27,201 nucleotides of DNA from NCBI GenBank assembly GCA_036273355.1, contig DASUHV010000245.1:1-27201 (forward strand). The letters run 5' to 3'. The position numbers and the translations under genes were made by a program. Of the stretch, positions 12,899-26,091 are shown one piece after another (the first letter of the stretch is position 1; every line of letters begins with the position of its first letter). The DNA comes from Gaiellales bacterium. Lineage in GTDB: Bacteria > Actinomycetota > Thermoleophilia > Gaiellales > JAICJC01. The notes below the pieces were generated by a model. The model saw only the letters and a program-made list of their open reading frames with translations, had not been told where the DNA came from and did no database searches.

Positions 12899-12969
12899 AG
12901 CGGGCGAGGAGAATCGAACTCCCGTCTTGAGCTTGGAAGGCTCTTGCTCTGCCATTGAGCTACGCCCGC
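12899..12969 (-). tRNA. tRNA-Gly (anticodon TCC)
   Basis: Minus strand reads GCGGGCG TA GCTC AATGGCA GAGC A AGAGC CT-TCC-AA GCTCA AGAC GGGAG TTCGATT CTCCT CGCCCGC T, a complete cloverleaf. CCA is not encoded. TACTAT -10 at 12986-12981. Confidence 0.96.
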
Positions 12970-13048: not shown

Positions 13049-15178
13049 ATGGAGCGCCTGATCCTGCGCAGCGCAGCGGTCTGCACGCGCCGCCCGTGGT
13101 GGGTGGTGGCGATCTGGATCGTGCTGCTGGCCGCCGCCCTGCCGTTCTCCGGCAAGGCCCAGGGCGTGCTCTCCTCCGGCGGCTTTGACGTCCCCGGCTC
13201 GCAGTCGCAGCAGGCGATCGACTACCTCAACAACCAGCCCGGCCGCGGCGCCTACTCGTTCTCGTTCCTGGTCGACGCCCCCACCGCCGCGGCCGCCCAG
13301 GCACGGGTCGCCCAGGTGCGCGCGCGGGTGGCCGCGCGCTACCCCGAGATCCACTTCACGACCGTGCCCGAGGAATCGCCTGACGGCAGCACCATCTCGT
13401 TCGTCGGCTTCGCGTCGGTCGACCAGAACCGCTCGCTCACGATCTCCCGCGACCTGAAGACCCTGGTGCAGCGCACCGACCCGCCGGTGCGCACCTTCCT
13501 GCTGGGCCCGTCCGCCAACTACGCGACCTTCCAGGACATCACCGAGCAGGGCCTGCAGCGCGCCGAGCTGCTGTCCTCGCCGGTGATCCTGATCGTGCTG
13601 CTGGTGCTGTTCGGCGCCGTCGTGGCGATGCTGGTGCCGGCCGCGCTGGGGGCGCTGTCGGTGCTGATCACCTTCGCCCTCGTCTACCTGGTCGCCTCGC
13701 ACACGGAGGTGTCGGTCTACGCGACCACGATGGTGACCATGATCGGCATCGGCGTCGCCGTGGACTACTCGATGTTCATCCTCGCCCGGTTCCGCGAGGA
13801 GCTGCTGGCCGGTGCCCCCACCGATCGGGCGGTTGCGACCGCGATGGCCACGTCTGGCACGGCCGTGGCGTTCTCAGGCATGACCGTGATCGTCTCGCTG
13901 GCCTCGATCTGGATCGTGCCCGTGCGCGCGGTGCAGTCGATGGCGCTGGCCGCGATCATGGTGGTGACCATTGCCGTGCTGGCGGCCATGACGCTGCTAC
14001 CCGCGGTGCTGATGCTGCTCGGCCCGCGCATCAACGCGCTGCGCATCCCCGGCCGCAGGGAGCGACCCGGCCGCGAGGGCTTCTGGATGCGCTGGACGCG
14101 CGGCGTCATGCGCCGTCCGCTGCTGTCCGCGCTGGGCGCCGCCACGCTGCTGATCGTGCTGTCGCTGCCCGCGTTGTCGATGGTGACCGCCAACCGGTCG
14201 CTCGAGCAGCTGCCCTCGTCCACCGATGTCAGAGTCGGCAACGCGATCCTGACCAAGCAGATCACCGGCCCCGGCCAGGGCCGCGAGGGTGCGCTCACGA
14301 TCCTGGTGCGCCCCCAGGACGCCGGCGGCTCCAGCCCGGCCGCCGTCGCCGCGGAGCTGCGCGCCCGGCTGGCCCGCGATCCCCTGGTCCAGGCCGCGAC
14401 GGTGGAGCCGGCGGGTCCCAGCCAGATCGTGGTCGGGCTGCTGCGGGTCGACCCCGAGTCCAGCAAGGCGGTCGACGTGCTCGTGCCGCGCGTGCGCTCC
14501 TGGGTCGGCGGCCGCGGGCTGGTGAGCGGCCTGTCTGCCTTCAACCACGACCTCAACACCGAGGTCGGTGACGACCTCTGGAAGGTGATGGCGCTGGTGC
14601 TGGGGCTGTCCTACCTGGTGCTGCTGATGCTGCTTCGCTCCGTGCTGCTGCCGCTGAAGGCGGTGATCATGAATCTGCTCTCGATCGGCGCCTCGTACGG
14701 GGTGATCGTGGCCGTCTTCCAGTGGGGCTGGTTCGACTGGACCGGCTACCACGCGCTGGGCCACATCAACACGCTGAACCCGGCGCTGATCCTGGCCATC
14801 ACCTTTGGCCTGGCGATGGACTACGAGGTGTTCCTGCTGTCGCGGATCCGCGAGCGCTACGAGGCCACCGGCGACAACACGCGGGCCGTCGCCGAGGGGC
14901 TTGCGTCGAGCGCCCGCACCATTACCTCGGCCGCGGCCATCATGACCATCGTGTTCGCGAGCTTCGTGCTCACCGGGGTGCCTGCGATCAAGGAGATCGG
15001 GCTGGGCCTGGCCGTCGCGATCGCCGTCGACGCCACCATCACGCGGCTGGTGCTGGTGCCGTCCACCATGCGGTTGCTCGGCCAGTGGAACTGGTGGCTG
15101 CCGGGCTGGCTCGACCGCCGCCTGCCGCACATGGCGCACGGCGCGCCGCGACGGGTCGCTTCGGAGACCGGCGACTAG
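13049..15178 (+). CDS. MMPL family (RND superfamily) transporter
   Basis: Two MMPL repeats with GIGVAVDYSMFILARFREE and FGLAMDYEVFLLSRIRE, plus DATITRLVLVPSTMRLLGQWNWWLP. Confidence 0.94.
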   Translation: MERLILRSAAVCTRRPWWVVAIWIVLLAAALPFSGKAQGVLSSGGFDVPGSQSQQAIDYLNNQPGRGAYSFSFLVDAPTAAAAQARVAQVRARVAARYPEIHFTTVPEESPDGSTISFVGFASVDQNRSLTISRDLKTLVQRTDPPVRTFLLGPSANYATFQDITEQGLQRAELLSSPVILIVLLVLFGAVVAMLVPAALGALSVLITFALVYLVASHTEVSVYATTMVTMIGIGVAVDYSMFILARFREELLAGAPTDRAVATAMATSGTAVAFSGMTVIVSLASIWIVPVRAVQSMALAAIMVVTIAVLAAMTLLPAVLMLLGPRINALRIPGRRERPGREGFWMRWTRGVMRRPLLSALGAATLLIVLSLPALSMVTANRSLEQLPSSTDVRVGNAILTKQITGPGQGREGALTILVRPQDAGGSSPAAVAAELRARLARDPLVQAATVEPAGPSQIVVGLLRVDPESSKAVDVLVPRVRSWVGGRGLVSGLSAFNHDLNTEVGDDLWKVMALVLGLSYLVLLMLLRSVLLPLKAVIMNLLSIGASYGVIVAVFQWGWFDWTGYHALGHINTLNPALILAITFGLAMDYEVFLLSRIRERYEATGDNTRAVAEGLASSARTITSAAAIMTIVFASFVLTGVPAIKEIGLGLAVAIAVDATITRLVLVPSTMRLLGQWNWWLPGWLDRRLPHMAHGAPRRVASETGD

Positions 15179-15186
15179 CGGATTGA

Positions 15187-15353
15187 AGATGGTTGATTCC
15201 ACGAGCTGCGCGGCGCCGGACTGGTCTGGCACACGCTGAACGCCGCGATCGTCCTTGCCCAGGACATGCCCAGCCTGTGCTGCGGACGCTCACGACGTTC
15301 AACCCGCGCCATTCTGCGCCCAGCATCCACGCATCCCGTGAAATCAACCATCT
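15187..15353 (-). repeat. 167-bp palindromic element with terminal inverted repeats (copy 1 of a MITE/REPIN-like family)
   Basis: AGATGGTTGATTCCACG at 15187-15203 versus CGTGAAATCAACCATCT at 15337-15353. Nearly the whole element pairs as one hairpin. Same termini as the element at 25321-25520. Confidence 0.8.
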
Positions 15354-15428
15354 GCTCCGTCCGACCCCCCTGCGATGCTTCTTTGTCCGGCCCGTAAGGT
15401 CGGCGCAGGCGGAAAGGACGGTCCTCAC

Positions 15429-16712
15429 ATGCTCTGGTTGATAGTCGGAATCGTGATCGGAATGGTTGTCGCCCTGGCGGCGCTGCGCCCGCGCCTGGCC
15501 GAGGTCGGCGTGTTGCGGCGCGAACGCGACACCTACGCGAATGAGGCGTCGCGGCTGGAGGGCCGCCTGGAGAGCGAGCGGGCGATGGCCGAGGACCGGT
15601 TCAAGGCGCTGTCGGCCGACGCGCTGAAGCAGAACAACGAGCAGTTCCTGACGCTGGCCAAGCAGGCCCTGGGCACGTATCAGAGCGAGGCCAAGGGCGA
15701 GCTCGAGAAGCGCGAGCAGGCGGTCCAGCAGCTGGTGGCGCCGATCTCGGAACAGCTCAAGCTGGTGGACACGCGTCTGGAGCGGCTCGACCGGGACCGC
15801 GTCCAGAGCTCCAGCGTGCTGCAGCAACAGCTGCGCACGATGGTCGAGTCGCAGGAGCGTCTGCGCGGCGAGACCGGAGCGCTGGTGGCGGCCCTGCGCA
15901 AGCCCCAGGCGCGTGGCCGCTGGGGGGAGATGCAGCTGCGAAACGTGGTCGAGATGGCCGGCATGGTCGGCTACTGCGACTTCGCCGAGCAGGTGACGGT
16001 CCGCGACGACGACCGCACCCTGCGCCCCGACCTGGTCGTGAACATGCCCGGCGGCAAGAAGGTGGTGGTCGACGCCAAGGCGCCGCTGCAGGCCTTCCTG
16101 GATGCCTACGACGCCACCGGTGACGTCGACCGCGACCGGCATCTGGCCGAGCACGCGCGGCTGCTGCGCGACCACGTCCGCAAGCTGTCGGCGCGCAGCT
16201 ACTGGGCGCAGTTCCCGGAGGCGCCCGACTTCGTGATCCTGTTCCTGCCCGGCGAGCACTTCTACAACGCGGCGCTCGAGGCCGACCCCACGCTGATCCA
16301 GCAGGGCGTCGAGCAGAAGGTGCTGATCGCCACGCCCACCACCCTGATCGCGCTGCTGCGCGCCGTGCACTACGGCTGGCAGCAGGAGAAGGTGGCCGAG
16401 AACGCGCGCGAGATCAGCGAGCTGGGCCGCGAGCTGCACTCGCGGCTGGGCACGGTCGCCGGCCACGTGAACGCGCTCGGCAAGCGGCTGGGCAGCGCGG
16501 TGGACGCCTACAACTCGGCGGTCGGATCGCTGGAGACGCGGGTGCTGGTCAGCGCCCGTCGCTTCACCGAGCACAGCGTGGTCGGCGAGGACAAGCAGAT
16601 CCAGATGCTGGAGCCGGTCGACCGCGTGCCGCGTTCGCCGCAGGCACCCGAGCTGGCGGCGGTCAACGACGACGAGGTGGTCGAGGCCCCGCGCACGCTG
16701 GGCGCCGCCTGA
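15429..16712 (+). CDS. rmuC: DNA recombination protein RmuC
   Basis: N-terminal TM, coiled coil, ARGRWGEMQLRNVVE, LRPDLVVNMPGGKKVVVDAKAP, YWAQF...PDFVILFLPGE and ATPTTLIALLRAV. GGAAAGGA RBS before the ATG at 15429. Confidence 0.95.
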   Translation: MLWLIVGIVIGMVVALAALRPRLAEVGVLRRERDTYANEASRLEGRLESERAMAEDRFKALSADALKQNNEQFLTLAKQALGTYQSEAKGELEKREQAVQQLVAPISEQLKLVDTRLERLDRDRVQSSSVLQQQLRTMVESQERLRGETGALVAALRKPQARGRWGEMQLRNVVEMAGMVGYCDFAEQVTVRDDDRTLRPDLVVNMPGGKKVVVDAKAPLQAFLDAYDATGDVDRDRHLAEHARLLRDHVRKLSARSYWAQFPEAPDFVILFLPGEHFYNAALEADPTLIQQGVEQKVLIATPTTLIALLRAVHYGWQQEKVAENAREISELGRELHSRLGTVAGHVNALGKRLGSAVDAYNSAVGSLETRVLVSARRFTEHSVVGEDKQIQMLEPVDRVPRSPQAPELAAVNDDEVVEAPRTLGAA

Positions 16713-16716
16713 CCGG

Positions 16717-17295
16717 TCAGACCGGGGCGGGCGGGCGAGCCAGACCGGCCACCGTCCGCTCGAGCATCGCCCGCAGCGGCCCTTCCGCAAACCCCTCTTG
16801 CGGGACCGAGAGCTGCGTCAGCAGCGCCCCCTCGATCAGGTTGCTGAGGATCTCGGCAGCCTGGCCGGGATCGGGCAGCCCGGCGCTCCCCGCCAGCGAC
16901 TCGATGCCGGCCAGGTAGGCCTGGTTCCAGCGCTCGGCCAGCGGCCGCAGCTCGGGCCGCCGCCCCGCCTCCAGCACCAGCTCGTACTGCGCCGCCAGCG
17001 GCGCCTGGTCGTCGTCGCAGATGGCCGCCACCAGGCTCAGCAACCGGCCCACGAGCTGCGCAGGATCGGCCGGGCCGGGCGGTGCCGACTCCCGCCGCAC
17101 CGCCGCGATCGAGCGATCGATCGCCAGCTCCAGCGCCTCGTGCACGAGCGCGTCCTTCGACGCGAAGTGGTACGTGGTCGAGGCAAGCGGCACGCCCGCC
17201 TCGGCGGCCACCGCCCGGTGCGTGGCCGCGTCCGCGCCGCGGGCGGCGATCACCCGCAGCGTCGCCTCCAGGATCACCGCCCGGCGATCACTCAC
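16717..17295 (-). CDS. TetR family transcriptional regulator (YbjK/RcdA-like)
   Basis: HTH RRAVILEATLRVIAARGADAATHRAVAAEAGVPLASTTYHFASKDAL. The GTG start overlaps the upstream oxidase stop (GTGA). Confidence 0.92.
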   Translation of the reverse strand: MSDRRAVILEATLRVIAARGADAATHRAVAAEAGVPLASTTYHFASKDALVHEALELAIDRSIAAVRRESAPPGPADPAQLVGRLLSLVAAICDDDQAPLAAQYELVLEAGRRPELRPLAERWNQAYLAGIESLAGSAGLPDPGQAAEILSNLIEGALLTQLSVPQEGFAEGPLRAMLERTVAGLARPPAPV

Positions 17296-18578
17296 GGCCC
17301 GGTCTGGCGAAGCCAGGCGCCGGCCCGCAGACCCGACTCGATCGCTCCGTCGATGAAGCCCGACCAGCCCGCGGCAAGGTCGGAGCCGGCCAGCAGCACC
17401 GGCCCTTCCGGCCGCCGCATCTCGTCGTAGTAGCGGCTGTACCAGCCCGGCCGGTGGATCGCCCAGGTGCCACGCGAGAACTCGTCGACCAGCCAGTCGT
17501 GGGCCGACGCGTCGAGCGCCCTGTAGCCGGGGATGATGTGATCGAGGTCGTCCTGCACGCGGGGCAGGTCGGTCGCGTCGTTCAGCGCGGCGTCGTAGCC
17601 GAAGCCGATCATCACCTGCGTTCCGTCGTCGTTCATGAACTCGGTGTCGAGGTAGCCGAACGGGTGTCCCGGCCGGATCGCGTTCTGGGAGATCGGCTCG
17701 CCGTCGGCGTGGATGAAGATCTTGATCCCGCGCGACGCCTGGCCCAGGGCGATCCCCTCCAGCTTCAGCTCCGACAGCGCCGGTTCGAACTCGATGGCCG
17801 CGAGCGTGTTCAGCGGCACGGCCACCACCGCCCGCGCCGTCGGCAGCAGCTCGCCTGCGCGCGTCTCCACCTCGACGCCGTCGCCGCGCCGTCGCACCGC
17901 CGCGACCGGCGTGGACAGCCGCGTCTCGTACGCCGCGCCGCGGGCGATCGCCTCCAGCAGCCCGCGGGTGCCCGTGGTCAGCGTCACCCGCCCGCCCGTG
18001 TACTGGGTCAGCGCCAGGCTGTAGCCGGAGAGCGCGTGCCAGCGAAGCACGCTGGCGGCGCCCGCCTCGTCCAGCGGGCCGTGGGCCAGCGACTCCAGCT
18101 CGGCCCACAGCACCTCGCGGTGCTCGTCGTCGAGGTCGAGCTCGTCCACCCGCTGAGCGATCGTCAATCGGTCGATCCGCGCCAGCTGGTCGATCGCCAG
18201 GGTCGGGTCGTGCGGGTTCGGCAGCGACCGCTCGACCCCGTCCACGAACTGCAGCCAGCCGCGGTTGGCGATCGCGTCGCGCTCGGCGATCGTCCCGGTA
18301 CGCCGCTCCTCGCCCACGTACCAGGCGGTCGCATCGGGGTCGCCCGACAGCTCGACGGTCAGCCCGGCGCGGGTGATCTCGGAGAACGTGTGGGGCTGGT
18401 GCCAGTGCACCCAGCCGCCGCCGTACTCGATCTGGTGGCCGTTCCAGGGAGCCGTCCAGGTGCGGCCGCCCAGCCGGTCGCGTCCCTCGAGCAGCAGCAC
18501 GCTGCGACCGTCCCTCGCCGCCCCACGGGCGGCGGTGACCCCGGCGAATCCACCGCCGACCACGACCACATCGTGCAT
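17292..18578 (-). CDS. Flavin monoamine oxidase family protein
   Basis: VVVVGGGFAG...LLEGRDRLGGRTWT, GGGWVH, DWLVDEFSRGTW and LLAGSDLAAGWSGFIDGAIESG. AGGGAG RBS before the ATG at 18578. Confidence 0.92.
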   Translation of the reverse strand: MHDVVVVGGGFAGVTAARGAARDGRSVLLLEGRDRLGGRTWTAPWNGHQIEYGGGWVHWHQPHTFSEITRAGLTVELSGDPDATAWYVGEERRTGTIAERDAIANRGWLQFVDGVERSLPNPHDPTLAIDQLARIDRLTIAQRVDELDLDDEHREVLWAELESLAHGPLDEAGAASVLRWHALSGYSLALTQYTGGRVTLTTGTRGLLEAIARGAAYETRLSTPVAAVRRRGDGVEVETRAGELLPTARAVVAVPLNTLAAIEFEPALSELKLEGIALGQASRGIKIFIHADGEPISQNAIRPGHPFGYLDTEFMNDDGTQVMIGFGYDAALNDATDLPRVQDDLDHIIPGYRALDASAHDWLVDEFSRGTWAIHRPGWYSRYYDEMRRPEGPVLLAGSDLAAGWSGFIDGAIESGLRAGAWLRQTGP

Positions 18579-18609
18579 CGCCCGCTCCCTTGTTCCTGGA
18601 GTAACCGCT

Positions 18610-18629
18610 ACTGGTACAAATGTACCAGT
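18610..18629. promoter_or_regulatory. Perfect 9-2-9 palindrome ACTGGTACA-aa-TGTACCAGT; candidate operator of the adjacent TetR
   Basis: Directly visible, 31 bp upstream of the amine oxidase start. AT-rich compared with its surroundings. Confidence 0.75.
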
Positions 18630-18633
18630 TCGG

Positions 18634-20031
18634 TCAGTGCGGCGGCATGACCGGCGACAGCAGGGCCGTGCGGCAGGCACGCGTGCCGTGGGTGTCCTCG
18701 TGGACGTCGGCGCTCTCCAGCACCCGCACGATCGCCCGGGAGGCGATGAACCGCAGCGGCTCGGGCTCCCAGCGGCGGCTGCGGTGACCGACCCAGGGCA
18801 GCGTGGTCAGGTCGGTGTCGCGCCCCAGCACCAGGTCGGCAAGCGTGCGGCCGCCGATGTTGGCGGCGACCACGCCGTGGCCGGAGTAGCCGCCGGCGTA
18901 GCCGAGGCCGGTGCCGGGGTTGAAGTGGACGGCCATGCTCCAGTCCCGCGGCACCGCCAGCGGGCCACCCCAGTGGTGCGTGATGGCCGCATCAGCAGCG
19001 GCCGGGAAGTGGTGGCGGAGCACCCGCTCCAGGCGCGCCCGCACCGAGTCGGAGCGCTCGTTCTGCTCGCTGATGGGGTGGCGCAGCTGGTAGGGAGCGC
19101 CGCGGCCGCCGATCGCGATCCGGCCGTCGGCGGTCCGCTGCGCGTAGAAGAACAGGTGGTGGCGGTCCCCGATCAAGAGGCCGTCCCGCCAGCCCAGCTC
19201 GTCCCAGACCTCGGGCGGCAGCGGCTCGGTCGCGATCATCAGCGAGTACAGCGGCAGGTAGCGCAGCGACTGTCCCGGCAGCTGGGTGGTGTAGGACTCG
19301 GTCGCGCGCAGCACCGTGGTCGCGCGCAGCTCTCCGCCGGGGCAGCGAACGCGGCCGGAGGCGAGCTCCAGCGCCGGCGTGCGCTCGTGGATGACCACGC
19401 CCAGCCGCTCGCAGGCCTCGGCCAGGCCGCGGACCAACCGGGCCGGGTCGATGCGGGCGCCGTGCGGCGAGTACACGGCCGCGATCCGCCCGTCGACCCG
19501 CGCGTACGCGTCGGCCTGCTCGGGCGTCAGCGTCTGCCAGTCCTGCTCGGTGGCGCCCAGCGCCCGCGCCGAGCGCTCGCTATCCGCCAGCCGTTGCTCC
19601 TGCGGTGGGCTGGTGGCGACCATCAGCCAGCCTGCTTTCAAGTAGCCGCATTCGATGCCCTCCTGCTCGATCACGCGTCCGATCTCGTCGACGGTCGTCT
19701 GCGTCTCACGCTGGGCGCGTACGACGGCGTCCTGCCCGTGGCTGCGGCGGTAGAGCTTGGCGCTGCCGGACAGGCCGGATGAGACCCAGCCGCCGTTGCG
19801 GCCGGACGGGCCGTACCCGGCGATCTCGCTCTCGACCACGGTCACGCGCAGGTCGGGCTGGTGCCGCTTCAGGTAGTACGCCGACCACAGGCCGGTGAAC
19901 CCGGCGCCCACGATCGCGACGTCACAGTCGGCCGACGCCTCCAGCGAGCGCCGCGGCGTCAGCGACCCCGGCAGGCCGTCCAGCCACAGGCTGCGCGCGC
20001 GGTATCGGGCTTCGAAGGGGTCGGCTGGCAC
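18634..20031 (-). CDS. FAD-dependent oxidoreductase, DAO/PuuB (gamma-glutamylputrescine oxidase-like) family
   Basis: SLWLD, DVAIVGAGFTGLWSAYYL, GYGPSGRNGG, ATEPL, HHWGGPL and GYSGHGV. GTG at 20031 chosen because TAGACT (-10) lies 8 nt upstream. Confidence 0.9.
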   Translation of the reverse strand: MPADPFEARYRARSLWLDGLPGSLTPRRSLEASADCDVAIVGAGFTGLWSAYYLKRHQPDLRVTVVESEIAGYGPSGRNGGWVSSGLSGSAKLYRRSHGQDAVVRAQRETQTTVDEIGRVIEQEGIECGYLKAGWLMVATSPPQEQRLADSERSARALGATEQDWQTLTPEQADAYARVDGRIAAVYSPHGARIDPARLVRGLAEACERLGVVIHERTPALELASGRVRCPGGELRATTVLRATESYTTQLPGQSLRYLPLYSLMIATEPLPPEVWDELGWRDGLLIGDRHHLFFYAQRTADGRIAIGGRGAPYQLRHPISEQNERSDSVRARLERVLRHHFPAAADAAITHHWGGPLAVPRDWSMAVHFNPGTGLGYAGGYSGHGVVAANIGGRTLADLVLGRDTDLTTLPWVGHRSRRWEPEPLRFIASRAIVRVLESADVHEDTHGTRACRTALLSPVMPPH

Positions 20032-20140
20032 GGCGGGTGAGTCTAGCGAGCGGCCGTGCACGGCCGGTCAGTTGCAGATCTGGCTCGAGCGCCCGGAACC
20101 GGATGACGTGACCGTGGGCGTCCTCATCTAGCATCGGGCC

Positions 20141-21097
20141 ATGGATCTTCCGCCCGGATACCGGCTGCGGGCGCCTGTGATCGAGGACGGCCCTGCGATC
20201 GCCGACATGCTGAACGAGGAGACGGTGGCGCTGACCGGAGTCCCGGTTGCCAGCGTGGAGTGGGTCACGACCGCCTGGACGGCACCCGGCGCCAGGGTCG
20301 ACCGCGACTTCGGCGTCATCACCGACAGCGGCGGGGCGATCGCCGGGTACTTCATGATCGACTTCGAGCCGCCCCAGACCACCATGACGGTGATCGGTGC
20401 CGTGGCCCTGTCGCACCACAACCGCGGAATCGGCTCGGCCATCATCCAGGAGGTCGAGCGGCGCGGCCGGGACCGGGCCGCCGGTCGCGAGGACATCACC
20501 CTCCGGATGGGGGTGCTGGCGGGCGAGCCACGGGTGGCGGCGCTGCTGACCGCCCACGGATTCCGCGAGGTGCGGGTGTTCTGGTCGATGTCGCTCCGGT
20601 TCGACGGCCCGCCGCCGCCCCCGGCCGACGTTCCGGGGATCGACGTCCGCACGTTCGTCCCCGGCCAGGAGCGGGAGGTCTACGCGTGCGCGGCCGCGGC
20701 GTTCGAGGATCACTGGGGCGACGGGTTCCCGTCCGAGCAGTCGTGGCTGCATCGCACCGTCTACGCCAGCGACACCTTTGATCCCGAGCTGTGGTACCTG
20801 GCCTGGGAGGGCGAGCGGCTGGTGGGCTTGCTGCTGGCCGCCGCCGACTCCGAGGAGGATCCCGAGCTCGGGTACGTCGCCTGGCTGGGCGTGCGCCGCG
20901 AGGCCCGCGGCCGCGGCCTCGGCGAGGCGCTGCTGCGCCGCAGCTTCGTGAAGTTTCACGAGCTCGGAAAACTGGGCGCGCAGCTGGTGGTCGACAGCGA
21001 GTCGAGCACCGGCGCCAACCGGCTGTACGAGCGCGTTGGCATGACCGCACAGCCACGCTTCGCCAACTGGGACCGTTCGCTGCTGCCCGCAGACTGA
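20141..21097 (+). CDS. Tandem two-domain GNAT acetyltransferase (MshD-like architecture)
   Basis: Two acetyl-CoA motifs (HHNRGIGSA and LGVRREARGRGLGEALLRRSF), plus VDSESSTGANRLYERVGM. TAGCAT -10 lies 6 nt before the ATG. Confidence 0.88.
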   Translation: MDLPPGYRLRAPVIEDGPAIADMLNEETVALTGVPVASVEWVTTAWTAPGARVDRDFGVITDSGGAIAGYFMIDFEPPQTTMTVIGAVALSHHNRGIGSAIIQEVERRGRDRAAGREDITLRMGVLAGEPRVAALLTAHGFREVRVFWSMSLRFDGPPPPPADVPGIDVRTFVPGQEREVYACAAAAFEDHWGDGFPSEQSWLHRTVYASDTFDPELWYLAWEGERLVGLLLAAADSEEDPELGYVAWLGVRREARGRGLGEALLRRSFVKFHELGKLGAQLVVDSESSTGANRLYERVGMTAQPRFANWDRSLLPAD

Positions 21098-21270
21098 CCG
21101 ATTCCGGCCGGCCGTGAGCACCCGTACACGGGTAGGCGGTGCCCCCCAGATGGGGGATGCGTCACGTCGTTGGGGGATGCCAGGATGGTTCTGCAGGGGG
21201 ACGAGGAGGACGGGTCACAACCGATCTCCCTGTGAGGCCGAGGGTCGGCCGCAACGGAAGGGGTCTTCCA

Positions 21271-22761
21271 GTGAATCTCCAACGCGTCTGTGTGCTCGTC
21301 GCTGCGCTGCTTGCGTGGCTCGTGTTCACCGCCACGGCGTCTGCCAACCCGCTGCCGGCGGCCGGTATCTACCAGGTCTGGGCCAACGATTCCGGCGCCA
21401 CCGCACCCTATGTGCGCGGTGGCCAGATCACGCTCGACTGGGCCACCATCGAGCCCCAGCGCAAGACCTTCAACTGGAGCTCGCTGGACTCCGAGCTGAA
21501 GTACTACGCCTCGATCGGCAAGGTCGCGACCGTGCAGGTCAACTCGACCACCAAGCCGGCCTGGCTCTGGAACGTGGTCGCGCGCTGCGGCACGGTGCAG
21601 AAGCAGGCGGCCCCACAGTACTGGGATCCCGCCTACATGACGGTGCAGACCGAGCTGGTGTCGGCGCTGGCGGCGCACCTCAAGGCCTCGCCGTATGAGT
21701 CCACCGTCGCCCTGGTGCGGTCCGCTCCCAACGCGATCGGCACCGAGCTGACCGACCTGCCCGCGGGCTACACGTGCACGGCCACGCCCTCAGGCCACAA
21801 GGTCAAGACGCTCTGGTCGAAGGACGTGCGCAACGCCTACTACTACAACGTCATGAACCTGTACCGGCTGCAGATGCTGCCGCAGATCCCGGTGGCGCTG
21901 AGGGCGCAGGTGTGGACGCAGTGGCCGGGGCACTGCCCGATGGATTGGCTGGGCACCGGCGGCGCCATGATCATGGGCACCGGCTCGGATATCGATCCGC
22001 AACCGATACGCGACGCGTTCGACCTGTTCGCCTACAACCAGGTGCGGATGGGCAGCAGCAACGCCTACTGGGAGCCGATCAGCTACGCCGGCAAGAACAA
22101 CCTCGTCAGCTGGAACTACTGGCGGATCCTGCTGGAGCTGGACAAGGGCGTGCGATCCATCGCTGTCTACGGCAACGTGCTCAGCCAGGGGCAGACGAAC
22201 CCGGAGTTCCGGGCCGCCTTCGACTTCGCGAATGCGTACGCGGGCCATCAGTGGGATCCGGCCGGATCACCGGGCGCATGGGTGGCCCTGCGGCAGGGAA
22301 CGGGCCGTATGGCCGGCAACTTCACCTGGTTCATGACGCAGCTGAACCCGTCCACCACGTCGGTGCCGGTCGACAGCAACGCCGGCGCGTCGATGATCGG
22401 GCCGGCCACGCAGCGCTTCGGCCGATACGCACGCCAGATCACGGGCGGCACATCCACGAACACCATGAGCTTCGCTCTCGATCCGACCTTCCGGACCGAC
22501 CTGGCGTCGTCGCTGACCACGCTGCGTGTCACGTACCTGGACACCGGCACCGGCAGCTTCAACGTCAGCTGGGGCACCGATCCCACCCAGACGGTGACGA
22601 TCACCAAGACCAACACCGGCAGCTGGCAGACGACGCAGATCCCGGTTGCCGGGATCGACTACACGGGCGGCCTTGCGGGGGGCGCCGACATCTCCGTGTC
22701 CGAGCTGGGCAGCGACTCCACCGACTTCCAGATGGTGGAGGTTGCGGTGGCAGGGCGCTGA
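21271..22761 (+). CDS. Secreted glycoside-hydrolase-like protein (beta-galactosidase/clan A-like barrel plus C-terminal beta-sandwich)
   Basis: GTG at 21271 with GGAAGGGG RBS. Signal peptide ending ATASA. LDWATIEPQRKTFNWSSLD and PQYWDPAY as in GH42/GH35-like barrels. C-terminal LRVTYLDTGTG...TKTNTGSWQT is CBM-like. Confidence 0.65.
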   Translation: MNLQRVCVLVAALLAWLVFTATASANPLPAAGIYQVWANDSGATAPYVRGGQITLDWATIEPQRKTFNWSSLDSELKYYASIGKVATVQVNSTTKPAWLWNVVARCGTVQKQAAPQYWDPAYMTVQTELVSALAAHLKASPYESTVALVRSAPNAIGTELTDLPAGYTCTATPSGHKVKTLWSKDVRNAYYYNVMNLYRLQMLPQIPVALRAQVWTQWPGHCPMDWLGTGGAMIMGTGSDIDPQPIRDAFDLFAYNQVRMGSSNAYWEPISYAGKNNLVSWNYWRILLELDKGVRSIAVYGNVLSQGQTNPEFRAAFDFANAYAGHQWDPAGSPGAWVALRQGTGRMAGNFTWFMTQLNPSTTSVPVDSNAGASMIGPATQRFGRYARQITGGTSTNTMSFALDPTFRTDLASSLTTLRVTYLDTGTGSFNVSWGTDPTQTVTITKTNTGSWQTTQIPVAGIDYTGGLAGGADISVSELGSDSTDFQMVEVAVAGR

Positions 22762-22790
22762 TCGGCCCGTTCTGCGCGTAATATGTGCGA

Positions 22791-23123
22791 ATGAACACTG
22801 GTGAGCAGCGCGAGCTGCGGCAGTGGGCCGATCAGCTGTGCGAGGTCGATGACCCGGAACGGCGTGCGATGGGCCGGGCGATCGCGATGCTGCTCGACCG
22901 CATCGAGGAGCTCGAGAAGGAGCTGTCGGCGGCGCCGCAGGCGGCCCCGAACGGTGACTTCGAGCCCAACGGCGAGCCGTCGTGGCCCGAGCAGCCGGAC
23001 GTGGTCGCGCCGTCGAGGAGCCTGGCCGAGCCCATCAGCGTCGGCGAGGACACCCAGCAGCTGAGCCTTCGCGACCGACTGCGCCACGCAGCCGACAACC
23101 TCCGTGAGCGCGGCGAGCGCTGA
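22791..23123 (+). CDS. Hypothetical protein (110 aa)
   Basis: TAATAT -10 exactly 6 nt before the ATG at 22791. High-GC codon bias. Short coiled-coil (LLDRIEELEKEL). Confidence 0.7.
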   Translation: MNTGEQRELRQWADQLCEVDDPERRAMGRAIAMLLDRIEELEKELSAAPQAAPNGDFEPNGEPSWPEQPDVVAPSRSLAEPISVGEDTQQLSLRDRLRHAADNLRERGER

Positions 23124-23183
23124 ACGGCCCGCCGGGTACCGGTACCGCTAGCTGCCGGCCCCTGAGGCTCGTAAAGTCGAAGG

Positions 23184-24122
23184 GTGACCGTACGTGGCTC
23201 CGATGCGGTACCTGCGAACGATGCTGCCTGGGATCAGGCGGCCGACGACGCGTTCCACCAGGCGTTGCCGACGATCCTGGACGAGGTGTTCGGCGAGCAC
23301 CGGCTGGATCAGCTGGTGACTGCCATCTGCGACGGTGGCGAGGAGCTCGTGCCGGAGGTCACCCTGCGTCTCGAGGGCTTCGACGTGCGCTGTCTGGCCG
23401 GGCGCATCTTCGATTCGCCCGGTGCGGCTCCACCCGAGGACGACGAGAGCTTCGCGCTGCTCGATCTGCGACCCGGGCAGATGGCCGTGCGCATCCCGAT
23501 GTCGAGCTCCGGCGTGCACCTCGCCGACCTGGTGGCGGTGCGCGAGGGCGGAGCCTGGATCGGCGCCCAGCACCGCGGCCAGCTGCGCCTCTTCGCAGAC
23601 ATGGTGGCGCCGCTCCTGTACGCGCAGCTCGAGCGCGACGAGCTGCGCCGGGCGGCGCTCACCGACCAGCTCACGGGCCTCGCCAACCGGCGCGCGCTCG
23701 ACCATGTGCTGGAGCAGATGTGCTCCCAGCAGGCGCACCTGTGCATGCTGTTGCTGGACGTGGACGGGCTGAAGGAGGTGAACGACGCCATCGGCTATGC
23801 GCAGGGCGACCACCTGATCAGCACGCTGGCCCGCTCGATCACGGAGTCGATCGCGCCGCGTCACATCGCGGCCCGCATGGGCGGTGACGAGTTCATCGTG
23901 ATCATGCCCGACACCACGCGCAAGCAGGCCCGGAAACGGGCCAAGAAGATCGCGCGGCGGTTCGAGAAGCAGCCGCTGCATCCGCGCGTGTTCGAGATCA
24001 GCGGCGGCGTCTCGATGGGCGTGATCGAGGCCAAGCCGGGGGAGGGGCCGCTGGAGCTGGTGCGGCGGGCCGCGCGCTCGATGCGCGTCAACAAGCGCCG
24101 GCGCCGCACCGACCGCGGCTGA
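23184..24122 (+). CDS. Diguanylate cyclase (GGDEF domain) with N-terminal sensory-like region
   Basis: LTDQLTGLANRRAL, LLDVDGLKEVNDAIGYAQGD, ARMGGDEF and SMGV. Intact GGDEF; no RxxD I-site (RHIA at that position). Confidence 0.92.
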   Translation: MTVRGSDAVPANDAAWDQAADDAFHQALPTILDEVFGEHRLDQLVTAICDGGEELVPEVTLRLEGFDVRCLAGRIFDSPGAAPPEDDESFALLDLRPGQMAVRIPMSSSGVHLADLVAVREGGAWIGAQHRGQLRLFADMVAPLLYAQLERDELRRAALTDQLTGLANRRALDHVLEQMCSQQAHLCMLLLDVDGLKEVNDAIGYAQGDHLISTLARSITESIAPRHIAARMGGDEFIVIMPDTTRKQARKRAKKIARRFEKQPLHPRVFEISGGVSMGVIEAKPGEGPLELVRRAARSMRVNKRRRRTDRG

Positions 24123-24188
24123 GCGATCTCACGAAACCGGGGTTGGCCGCGTTGTAGTCGTGTTCGCCAACCACCGGAGGGATACCGC

Positions 24189-24653
24189 ATGCCAGCCTTC
24201 ACAGTCAGCCCGCTGCCCGCCTCGCAGGTCGACCAGGCCCGGAGCGCCGCGCTCGCCGACGGCACCGCCGTCGAGGTGACAAGCAACGACGATGCCCCGT
24301 TCCCGGTGCGCTGCTGCCTGCACGACGCCACCGCCGATGAGGGCGTGCTGCTGCTGTCCATGCAGCCGCGGAGCGGCGATAGCCCATACGCCGCGCCCGG
24401 GCCGGTCTACATCCACCGTGACCGCTGTGCCGGCTACAGCCGCGAGGGCGAGGTGCCGCAGATCCTGCGCGGGCGCACCCTGTCGCTGCGGGGGTACACG
24501 GACGAGCACATGATCACCGGCACGGCCGTCGTCGCCGGCGAGGACGTCGAGCGCGCCGCGCAGCAGCTGCTCGAGGTGCCCGGGACTGCGTACTTGTTCG
24601 TGCACTTCGCCGGCCCCGGATGCTACGCGTGTCGCATCGATCCGGCCGCCTGA
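24189..24653 (+). CDS. DUF1203 domain-containing protein
   Basis: FPVRCCLHDA, YAAPGPVYIH, LSLRGY and YLFVHFAGPGCYACRID. GGAGG RBS. Confidence 0.85.
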   Translation: MPAFTVSPLPASQVDQARSAALADGTAVEVTSNDDAPFPVRCCLHDATADEGVLLLSMQPRSGDSPYAAPGPVYIHRDRCAGYSREGEVPQILRGRTLSLRGYTDEHMITGTAVVAGEDVERAAQQLLEVPGTAYLFVHFAGPGCYACRIDPAA

Positions 24654-24698
24654 AGGCGGTGCTAGCCGGGCTTAGCCGCATTCCGCTAGTCTCGTCAC

Positions 24699-25325
24699 AT
24701 GAGCTATCGAGTTGTGTGCATATCGCGTGACGTGGGTGCCGGTGGCGAGGACGTGGGCCGTGCGGTCGCGTCGCAGCTGGGCTTCCGGTACGTGGATGAG
24801 GAGATCGTGCGGAGGGTCGCCGAGGAATCGGGGCTCGACCACGCCAGGGTGGCTGGAGCCGAGGAACGGCGAGGGCTGGTCGCGCGCCTGCTGGACGCGG
24901 TCGAGCAGTCGGCCGCCGGACTGCCCGAGCCGTACATGTACGCGGCCGACGTGCAGCTGCCGGCCGCTCCGGGTGAGGACGTCCGCGAGCTGATCCGCGA
25001 GGCGGTGCGACAGACGGCCGACGAGGGCGACGTCGTGATCGTGGCCCACGCTGCGTCGCACGTGCTGGCCGGCCGCACTGAGGCGCTGCGGGTGTGGGTG
25101 ACCGGGTCGCCCCACGCGTGCGCCGAGCGGCTGGTCGCCACCGCCGGGGTGGATGCCAGGCGCGCCGGCGAGCTGGTTGAGGGCGGGCGCAAGGCGCGCG
25201 CCGACTACCTGCGCCGGTTCCACGACGTCAAGCAGGAGCTGCCCAGCCAGTACGACGTGGTGCTGAGCACCGATGCGCTGAGCGTGGACGACGCGGCCGC
25301 CGCCGTGGTCATGCTGGCTAGATGA
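24699..25325 (+). CDS. Cytidylate kinase-like family protein
   Basis: CISRDVGAGGEDVGRAVASQLGFRYVDEEIV P-loop-like start, GDVVIVAHAA, and YDVVLST. TAGTCT -10 lies 6 nt before the ATG. The stop codon lies inside the repeat terminus. Confidence 0.85.
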   Translation: MSYRVVCISRDVGAGGEDVGRAVASQLGFRYVDEEIVRRVAEESGLDHARVAGAEERRGLVARLLDAVEQSAAGLPEPYMYAADVQLPAAPGEDVRELIREAVRQTADEGDVVIVAHAASHVLAGRTEALRVWVTGSPHACAERLVATAGVDARRAGELVEGGRKARADYLRRFHDVKQELPSQYDVVLSTDALSVDDAAAAVVMLAR

Positions 25326-25520
25326 TTGATTCCACGTCCCCGCGCGCCTGACCGTCCGTACTGCTGGTGGGTGCGTGTGGCTGCGGTGCTGCGGTCGGGA
25401 AGCGTGCGCATCGCAGCGTCCTCGGTCGGGCCGATATTCCCGATATCGGCCCTCCCTCGATCCTGGCGCTGCTTGCTTACCGACCGCTCAGGACATCACG
25501 GCGACGTGGAATCAATTATC
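25321..25520. repeat. 200-bp element with terminal inverted repeats and nested stems (copy 2 of a MITE/REPIN-like family)
   Basis: GATGATTGATTCCACGTC at 25321-25338 versus GACGTGGAATCAATTATC at 25503-25520 (17/18). Internal stems of 5, 13, 8 and 10 bp. Termini match the element at 15187-15353. Confidence 0.8.
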
Positions 25521-25527
25521 AAGCCCT

Positions 25528-26091
25528 TCAACAGCGCGGCAGGTAGCCGCCGCGCACGGTCGCGGCGAACGCCTTCCCGCCGGCGCTGTAGCCGACCACG
25601 AGCGGTTGGCGCAGCGCCGGCACCTGCACGGGCCGGTGCGTCAGGCAGCCGCGGGCGCGGAAATGGAAGTCGATCTGGAGCGTCGCGCGCGGCGGCAGGC
25701 GCAGGTCGAACGGCTGGGTTGACTGCCGCTGGGGCGGCCCGAAGGTGGCGCCGCTGCGGCTGATCCGCTTGATCGCGATGTCATCGACGTGCCCGCCCCT
25801 CGGCAGCAGCACCGACGTGACCGTGATGGGATGGTCGCCCGCGTTCTGAACGTCGGCGAAAGCCAGGTGCAGGGTGTGGTCGGCAGGCGCTGACAGGTAG
25901 GTCGCGCCGAGGCTCGTGAACGCGACCGGGCCGGTCTGGTCGGGAATCGGCGTGGACGGCGGGACTGCCGGTGTGACCTGCCCCGGCGAGACCAGCAGGA
26001 TCACGGTCGCCGCCAGCGCCACCAGCGCCGCCGCGGCCGGCGAAACCGGCCCGGCGGGGCGACTGCTGCGCGGTGCGGCAACTGCACTCAT
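25528..26091 (-). CDS. Hypothetical membrane-anchored or secreted protein with Ig-like beta domain
   Basis: Hydrophobic segment AAAALVALAATVILLVS, then a Pro-rich linker and a beta-rich region (VQNAGDHPITVTSV). TATGGT -10 lies 7 nt before the ATG at 26091. Confidence 0.65.
   Translation of the reverse strand: MSAVAAPRSSRPAGPVSPAAAALVALAATVILLVSPGQVTPAVPPSTPIPDQTGPVAFTSLGATYLSAPADHTLHLAFADVQNAGDHPITVTSVLLPRGGHVDDIAIKRISRSGATFGPPQRQSTQPFDLRLPPRATLQIDFHFRARGCLTHRPVQVPALRQPLVVGYSAGGKAFAATVRGGYLPRC

Follow-up and report, generated by a model that had tools for sequence, protein, structure and literature searches.

Short repeats that lack a transposase and end in the inverted repeats of an insertion sequence (IS) of the IS982 family are on record from the Cardinium endosymbiont cOegib, in which a MITE (miniature inverted-repeat transposable element) of ~240 bp occurs in many copies and its parental element, ISCca4, is intact in the same genome (PMC9769881). 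In this article, I will discuss a repeat family of the same general kind, two members of which lie in a 27,201-nucleotide stretch of DNA from a Gaiellales bacterium (contig DASUHV010000245.1 of assembly GCA_036273355.1, the whole of which is called the window) and are very probably MITEs with 16-bp ends of the IS982 type, a CTAG target in which TA is duplicated, and a rod-like hairpin with one strand favoured. The Cardinium MITE is described as derived from its parental IS and lives in an endosymbiont, whereas the present family shares only 16-19 bp with an IS, has no cognate IS found in its genus and inhabits a free-living soil actinobacterium; no conserved rod structure is known to be reported for the Cardinium MITE (PMC9769881).

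Similarly, bcr1 of the Bacillus cereus group, a MITE-like repeat of ~155 bp with 5-bp direct repeats and a cruciform of two stem-loops, varies in position between strains and keeps its RNA-level structure through compensatory changes, and in both respects resembles the family described here; however, it is not known to have an identified partner IS (PMC3184786), and the present family has a single rod, a TA/CTAG target and an IS982-type partner. The same source reviews the Correia/NEMIS elements of Neisseria among bacterial repeats (PMC3184786). Repetitive extragenic palindromic (REP) sequences and REPINs, with their REP-associated tyrosine transposase (RAYT), are also extragenic hairpin repeats found just after stop codons; they differ in having an HUH and not a DDE enzyme, in lacking a target duplication and in being much shorter. 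IS630 and Tc1-mariner elements and their MITEs prefer CTAG and duplicate TA, and are thus alike in target, but the transposase of the present partner fits the IS982 model, with no fit to DDE_3. Correia/NEMIS elements are MITEs of 100-160 bp with long terminal inverted repeats (TIRs), a TA duplication and co-transcribed hairpins that affect mRNA processing, for which RNase III is documented; their sequences and host phylum are unrelated to those considered here, and their transposase family is different or unassigned. The literature search found no paper on the present family in this lineage and none linking MITEs with Solirubrobacter.

The window is one contig (C245) of a 2.5-Mb draft genome of 348 contigs (G000) with 70.9% GC and 82% completeness. 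An earlier note, made from the letters of the window, had proposed a family of dispersed repeats, mobile but not autonomous, in which the ends and the fold are conserved, and this core inference is supported. All four termini of the two elements match GATRRTTGATTYCACG without a mismatch, where dinucleotide-preserving shuffles give 0.01 matches by chance, and they are AT-rich for the genome, as had been remarked (50% GC). Across G000 there are 38 termini at <=2 mismatches, with none for a reversed-pattern control, and 15 inverted pairs when termini are taken at <=3 mismatches; the pair sizes are 164-166 bp (ten), 155 bp (one), 200 bp (two) and 37-51 bp (three), the last being derivatives that are hardly more than both ends joined. 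A census with a covariance model built from the copies (R1), a step the earlier note had recommended, adds one copy with diverged ends (C80:4713-4878), and two more are interrupted by contig ends, which brings the genome to about 17-20 elements and bears out the suggestion that there could be many copies genome-wide. Element lengths across the family run from 37 to 225 bp. The unpaired termini of G000 are contig-end fragments or decayed remnants, none of which begins a transposase. One 16-bp remnant, GATGGTTGATTCCATC at G000:C5:9724-9739, preceded by CTA, seems to consist of the two outermost end pieces joined, and it adjoins an opposite-strand gene that, judged by eye, is tRNA-like.

At least two subfamilies, of ~166 bp and 200 bp, have the identical type of ends. 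The window interiors look unrelated because the window holds one member of each: the pair share nothing past the ends, as originally seen, and yet each interior has homologous copies elsewhere. Element 1, which on the plus strand is the ~166-bp subfamily in reverse orientation, is 89% identical to the reference copy C263:9784-9949 and scores 136 bits with R1 on the minus strand and 54 bits on the plus strand, while element 2 is 95% identical to G000:C217:5394-5603 and has more copies in G014, G003, G015 and G013. The terminus is present in 15 of 16 congeners and in 20 of the 24 genomes of the taxonomic family, and is patchy across the class Thermoleophilia (49/151 genomes), with bursts in a few lineages; exact matches in public genomes are mainly to metagenome-assembled genomes (MAGs) of Solirubrobacterales, Gaiellales, Thermoleophilaceae, Conexibacter and Patulibacter. 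The family thus has what defines a MITE, being short and non-coding, with TIRs, a target duplication (at the level of the family), dispersed copies, presence/absence polymorphism and ends common to an autonomous element.

Presence/absence polymorphism can be read at both window loci. At site 1, downstream of the MMPL gene and upstream of the RmuC gene (both on the plus strand), the element is missing from G010, G011, G012 and G007, with 94-98% identity in the flanks, and G005 (flanks 92% identical) has an internally deleted copy. The exact target at this site is unreadable, as the junction bases of G000 and G005 differ and the empty sites vary; the empty site of G010 (L159), orthologous to window 15179-15187, shows a tandem duplication of 14 bp (CGGATCCGGCTCAG-type) at exactly the place that the element occupies in G000. 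Site 2, between the Cytidylate_kin2 gene and a converging open reading frame (ORF) of 209 aa, is empty in G010, G011 and G012, which read GGGCCTAGCCG and have convergent stop codons 4 nt apart. G014 has the same 200-bp element at this site, and G005 (L178) has a different, longer one with a 166-bp-type interior at the same CTAG, which is an independent insertion. Site 2 looks like an insertion hot spot. The same position (CCTAGCC) in G004 (L179) has an unrelated insert of ~80 bp with no recognisable ends. In the window the Cytidylate_kin2 gene has lost 7 bp and now terminates at a TGA inside the repeat.

The target was read from 178 termini at 119 public loci, where the outer flank bases are TA at 110 termini and CTA at 87; all five full-length copies of the partner element read CTA|element|TAG. 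Together these indicate that the target is CTAG and that TA is duplicated. Decayed flanks are largely transition products (TG, CA), and those of the window copies have decayed to AA/TG (element 1) and TA/AA (element 2); the earlier note saw no target-site duplication, which is right for these two copies and wrong for the family. A search for longer or variable duplications past TA gave none that was consistent. Three copies are flanked by TCA...TCA in place of CTA...TAG (G000:C120:1501-1666, L057:2176-2341 and L081:4867-5031), which may reflect either a duplication that is occasionally 3 bp long or a TGA stop from a convergent gene. Head-to-tail pairs 2 nt apart were also seen (L059:2125-2287 with 2290-2453; G125:C5:75531-75693 with 75696-75858), as though a second copy had entered the duplicated TA of the first.

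This target bears directly on gene ends. Among 148 termini sampled, 49 adjoin an ORF with high third-position GC, and every one of these ORFs ends within ~9 nt of the element boundary; in 29 of the 49 the duplicated TA and the first G of the element together form the stop (TA|G), and in 12 a repeat-internal TGA serves as the stop. Since the junction restores TAG, a gene hit at its TAG stop stays terminated. The claim that both window elements start at stop codons fits this pattern: element 2 supplies the TGA of the Cytidylate_kin2 gene and element 1 follows the TAG of the MMPL gene, at a distance of 9 nt. Element 1 was real as delimited (15187 to 15353) apart from one extra A/T pair, and its bounds are corrected in the table below.

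There is no transposase in the window, as the earlier note had observed, and the check that it had suggested for one flanked by the same ends succeeded in related genomes, the enzyme being a DDE transposase of the IS982 family and not a RAYT. Five loci have identical 16-bp ends spaced 985-1111 bp apart (985-992 bp, with one copy of 1111 bp), and they enclose, as at L087:6704-7688, a single ORF of 289 aa that scores 157.4 bits against NF033520 (NCBIfam, IS982 family transposase; cut-off 130) and 62 bits against Pfam DDE_Tnp_1. The similarity of the MITEs to this partner ends after 16-19 bp at each end, which rules out that the interiors arose from the partner by internal deletion; with only the ends in common, the MITEs would be cross-mobilised. 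The partner transposase was found in only 4 of 41 relatives. Among the 17 genomes of the genus, the curated family model finds an IS982-family gene in G015 alone, where the element ends are different: this second element (L153, G015:C92:1-2139) has a transposase 38% identical, ends that read GAGGCTTGATGTGGG... and flanks CTA|..|TAG, and CTAG/TA targeting may be a trait of the IS982 clade that holds it. An IS630-type partner, suggested by the TA/CTAG target, was also considered, and DDE_3 (PF13358) has no match in G000. A sub-terminal CCACG-N-CGTGG motif, tried as a marker of orientation relative to the transposase gene, does not discriminate (24 versus 18 copies).

Both window elements fold back on themselves, as first described, with z = -4.2 (element 1) and -6.8 (element 2) against shuffles when taken as whole units, and z = -1.2 and -2.7 for the plus-strand interiors once the TIRs are removed. 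For the ~165-bp class the fold was followed in 43 copies of 155-177 bp from loci with unrelated flanks, and covariation was measured on 40 copies, aligned with plain MAFFT, with shuffles and slid partners as controls (a pooled model alignment, A2, was excluded from the pair counts because it mixes both strands). Groups from other genomes are 50-68% identical to the window type, yet have the same length and a single continuous rod. In the alignment, 29 of 45 consensus pairs persist although both of their bases have changed; paired cells reach 92.9%, where shuffles give 76.9% and slid partners 35-38%; two-sided change is seen in 263 cells, where the same controls give 81 and 43-65; and the covariation score is 0.445, where they give 0.165 and 0.05-0.09. 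The ~165-bp class is thus a long rod-like hairpin kept by compensatory substitutions. The earlier idea that ends and fold are conserved and the interior is not is supported: interiors diverge widely across the family, though they do not vary freely within a genome, and conservation of the fold is well shown for the ~165-bp class only.

In several subfamilies a purine-rich AGGACGC stands on both arms without pairing (alignment A1, columns ~62-72 and 113-121), a direct repeat within an otherwise inverted-repeat element. A coding mini-gene, for which the TAG|ATG ends and the common lengths of 166 and 163 would be suitable, was rejected, as there is no codon periodicity (GC by codon position is flat at 0.64/0.65/0.70), the peptides are unconserved and both strands are equally open. 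The Rfam search that had been advised returned no family at gathering score, and a permissive search gave a single chance match, to mir-H2, at 26.7 bits versus 92.

The two strands of the rod are not equivalent. One strand folds better in 42 of the 43 copies, by a mean of -26.8 kcal/mol, and the difference was replicated in 30 more copies from four other genomes (mean 33 kcal/mol); for element 1 the minimum free energy is -112.9 kcal/mol on the minus strand and -71.1 kcal/mol on the plus strand. When whole arms are set against each other, G·T facings outnumber A·C by 333 to 111 and purine·purine mismatches, which always fall on one and the same strand, outnumber pyrimidine·pyrimidine by 430 to 58, and within the consensus helices there are 157 G·U and 20 A·C cells, with G·U the commoner in 39 of 40 sequences and held at fixed positions, such as columns 24-162, which are UG in 30 of 40. 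The stability of one strand stems from these G·U pairs and purine-rich mismatches. A constraint at the level of the duplex cannot yield this strand bias, and it follows that the selected molecule is single-stranded, for which RNA is the simplest candidate; selection on the well-folding strand as RNA is the most likely cause of the asymmetry. A transcription-linked mutation bias is an unlikely one, given that the sense-oriented copies L144 and L121 are equally asymmetric. The 200-bp class has little asymmetry (-110.3 versus -104.7 kcal/mol by strand for element 2) and lies nearly always between convergent genes.

Orientation relative to genes is biased as well. With the coding strand of the flanks called from GC periodicity, a procedure that recovers the window genes confirmed by Pfam, the well-folding strand has the 3' end of a gene at its 3' side in 51 of 61 cases, and its 5' side meets gene ends and starts about equally; gene starts favour the 5' side by 30 to 10 (three duplicated loci removed; p about 0.002). 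Of the elements flanked by co-directional genes, 23 have their well-folding strand in antisense and 5 have it in sense (p about 0.001). The strong strand is seldom in the sense transcript of the downstream gene, probably through the removal of insertions by which a gene would come to be preceded by a hairpin of such stability (-110 to -140 kcal/mol). In soil and root metatranscriptomes, read depth peaks over the termini, which reflects many copies from many organisms.

The favoured account would run as follows. A ~985-992-bp IS982-family element of other Thermoleophilia would provide the DDE transposase that presumably moves the MITEs in trans; insertion into CTAG duplicates TA and, as the element starts with G and ends with C, creates TAG at each junction; a gene hit at its stop thereby keeps a stop, with TGA offered by the repeat in other frames; the strong strand would be selected as RNA, and insertions with a strong hairpin in the downstream transcript would be lost. 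Several points weigh against it. The cognate transposase was not found in G000 (82% complete), nor in the 16 congeners, which are mostly incomplete MAGs, several being >90% complete in 20-30 contigs, and because of this it is the shared ends that tie mobilisation to an IS982-type enzyme. Intact TA is missing on one side of both window copies and of many others, and IS982 elements are described in ISfinder with longer, variable duplications. The site 1 insertion is common to G000 and G005 but absent in closer relatives, and the junction bases differ. The soil/root metatranscriptome contigs that span both junctions of element 1 (15086-15216 and 15323-15472) are unstranded, give neither strand nor level, and could come from DNA carry-over, and in a palindrome the match between the arms could also be maintained by processes that act on the DNA itself.

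That last point can be made into an explanation in its own right, in which it is only as DNA that the hairpin is maintained, either as a cruciform or single-strand hairpin that pairs the ends for transposition or through copying of one arm from the other during repair, and the covariation would then be uninformative about RNA. The near-perfect end-to-end palindrome, the capacity of palindromes to homogenise their arms and the short two-end derivatives of 37-51 bp all suit this reading; however, a constraint on the duplex would not distinguish G·T from A·C, and neither the excess of G·T and G·U over A·C in arms and helices nor the confinement of purine·purine mismatches to one strand is what it predicts. 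IS4/IS5-like DDE transposases, moreover, work on double-stranded DNA, and I regard an exclusively DNA-level origin as improbable. The same asymmetries, together with G·U pairs kept at fixed columns, a covariation that holds across subfamilies only 50-60% identical and a structure that persists in genomes without the transposase, lend some weight to a bolder reading, in which the rod is an RNA gene, functional and specific to one strand, that the host or the element selects directly, with the MITE ends as its vehicle: an antisense or insulator RNA, a small RNA processed by RNase III, or a regulator of the IS982-type transposase. Against this, inspection of the termini by eye shows no promoter, most co-directional contexts have the well-folding strand antisense to the flanking genes, which leaves its transcription unexplained, Rfam has no match, the 200-bp subfamily is nearly symmetric and the RNA contigs are unstranded, and I hold it as a tentative, minority view. 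Its wider form, that the ~165-nt rod is a functional RNA spreading as MITE cargo across Thermoleophilia and selected even where the transposase has been lost, is similarly doubtful; a one-way transcriptional insulator, an antisense RNA at gene ends or an IS982-type transposase regulator are the roles it might possibly serve.

Two further explanations draw on the position of the elements at gene ends. Repeats of the REP/REPIN type, with a RAYT (HUH/Y1) as the mobilising transposase, would also lie just 3' of stops and fold into hairpins, and G000 encodes three Y1_Tnp proteins; nevertheless, a DDE element of the IS982 type with its own transposase has identical ends, TA is duplicated, the elements are 4-8x the length of a REP, and no terminus (<=3 mismatches) occurs on the contigs with the three Y1_Tnp genes, which makes this very unlikely. 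Those IS200/RAYT-like genes (C88:11763-12092, C260:3686-4009 and C163:2333-2659) may have REP-type repeats of their own. Fixed ancestral intergenic DNA, such as immobile terminators or operators, was the alternative that the earlier note itself had raised, and it would account for gene-end position and folding; it is refuted by the orthologous sites that are empty in congeners with 94-98% identical flanks, and the 43 loci with unrelated flanks and the single CTAG entered independently by two different elements also speak against it. The MITE account with an IS982-type partner is therefore the one retained here.

Table 1. Positions, in window coordinates, of the two elements, their parts and the neighbouring stop codons.
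Feature	Positions	Strand	Remarks
Element 1	15188..15352	-	MITE copy, ~166-bp subfamily, 165 bp; well-folding strand is the window minus strand
Element 1 TIR	15188..15203	+	GATGGTTGATTCCACG; identical to ends of full-length IS L087:6704-7688
Element 1 TIR	15337..15352	-	GATGGTTGATTTCACG read inward
Element 2	25321..25520	.	MITE copy, 200-bp subfamily, between convergent genes; little strand asymmetry
Element 2 TIR	25321..25336	+	Holds TGA 25323-25325, the present stop of the upstream Cytidylate_kin2 gene
Element 2 TIR	25505..25520	-	GATAATTGATTCCACG read inward
Element 2 perfect apical hairpin	25429..25451	+	10-bp stem, 3-nt loop
MMPL gene TAG stop	15176..15178	+	9 nt upstream of element 1
Converging 209-aa ORF stop (TGA)	25528..25530	-	8 nt from element 2 end

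Elsewhere in the window, a tRNA gene (Rfam RF00005, 68 bits) lies at 12899-12969 on the minus strand, just upstream of the MMPL gene, and the closest relatives of the RmuC gene that neighbours element 1 are 96-99% identical and come from soil MAGs labelled Gaiellales or Thermoleophilia.

The repeat family is real, and as a kind of bacterial repeat it is fairly ordinary; what goes beyond a routine MITE is the strength of the one-strand bias, the bias in orientation and a partner that is undetected in most host genomes. The Thermoleophilia, including Gaiellales and Solirubrobacterales, are abundant and poorly studied soil actinobacteria, and this family explains the AT-rich hairpins that recur at their gene ends and would otherwise be liable to flagging as novel RNA or regulatory sites; the covariance model R1 can be used to mask or annotate them. 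Selection on hairpins as RNA has already been raised for bcr1, ERIC and Correia elements, and the combination of covariation, G·U bias and orientation bias in a family whose partner is undetected offers a tractable test of RNA selection on MITE hairpins. Furthermore, CTAG targeting together with the rebuilding of stop codons provides a route by which such elements can spread through a compact 71%-GC genome without breaking its genes.

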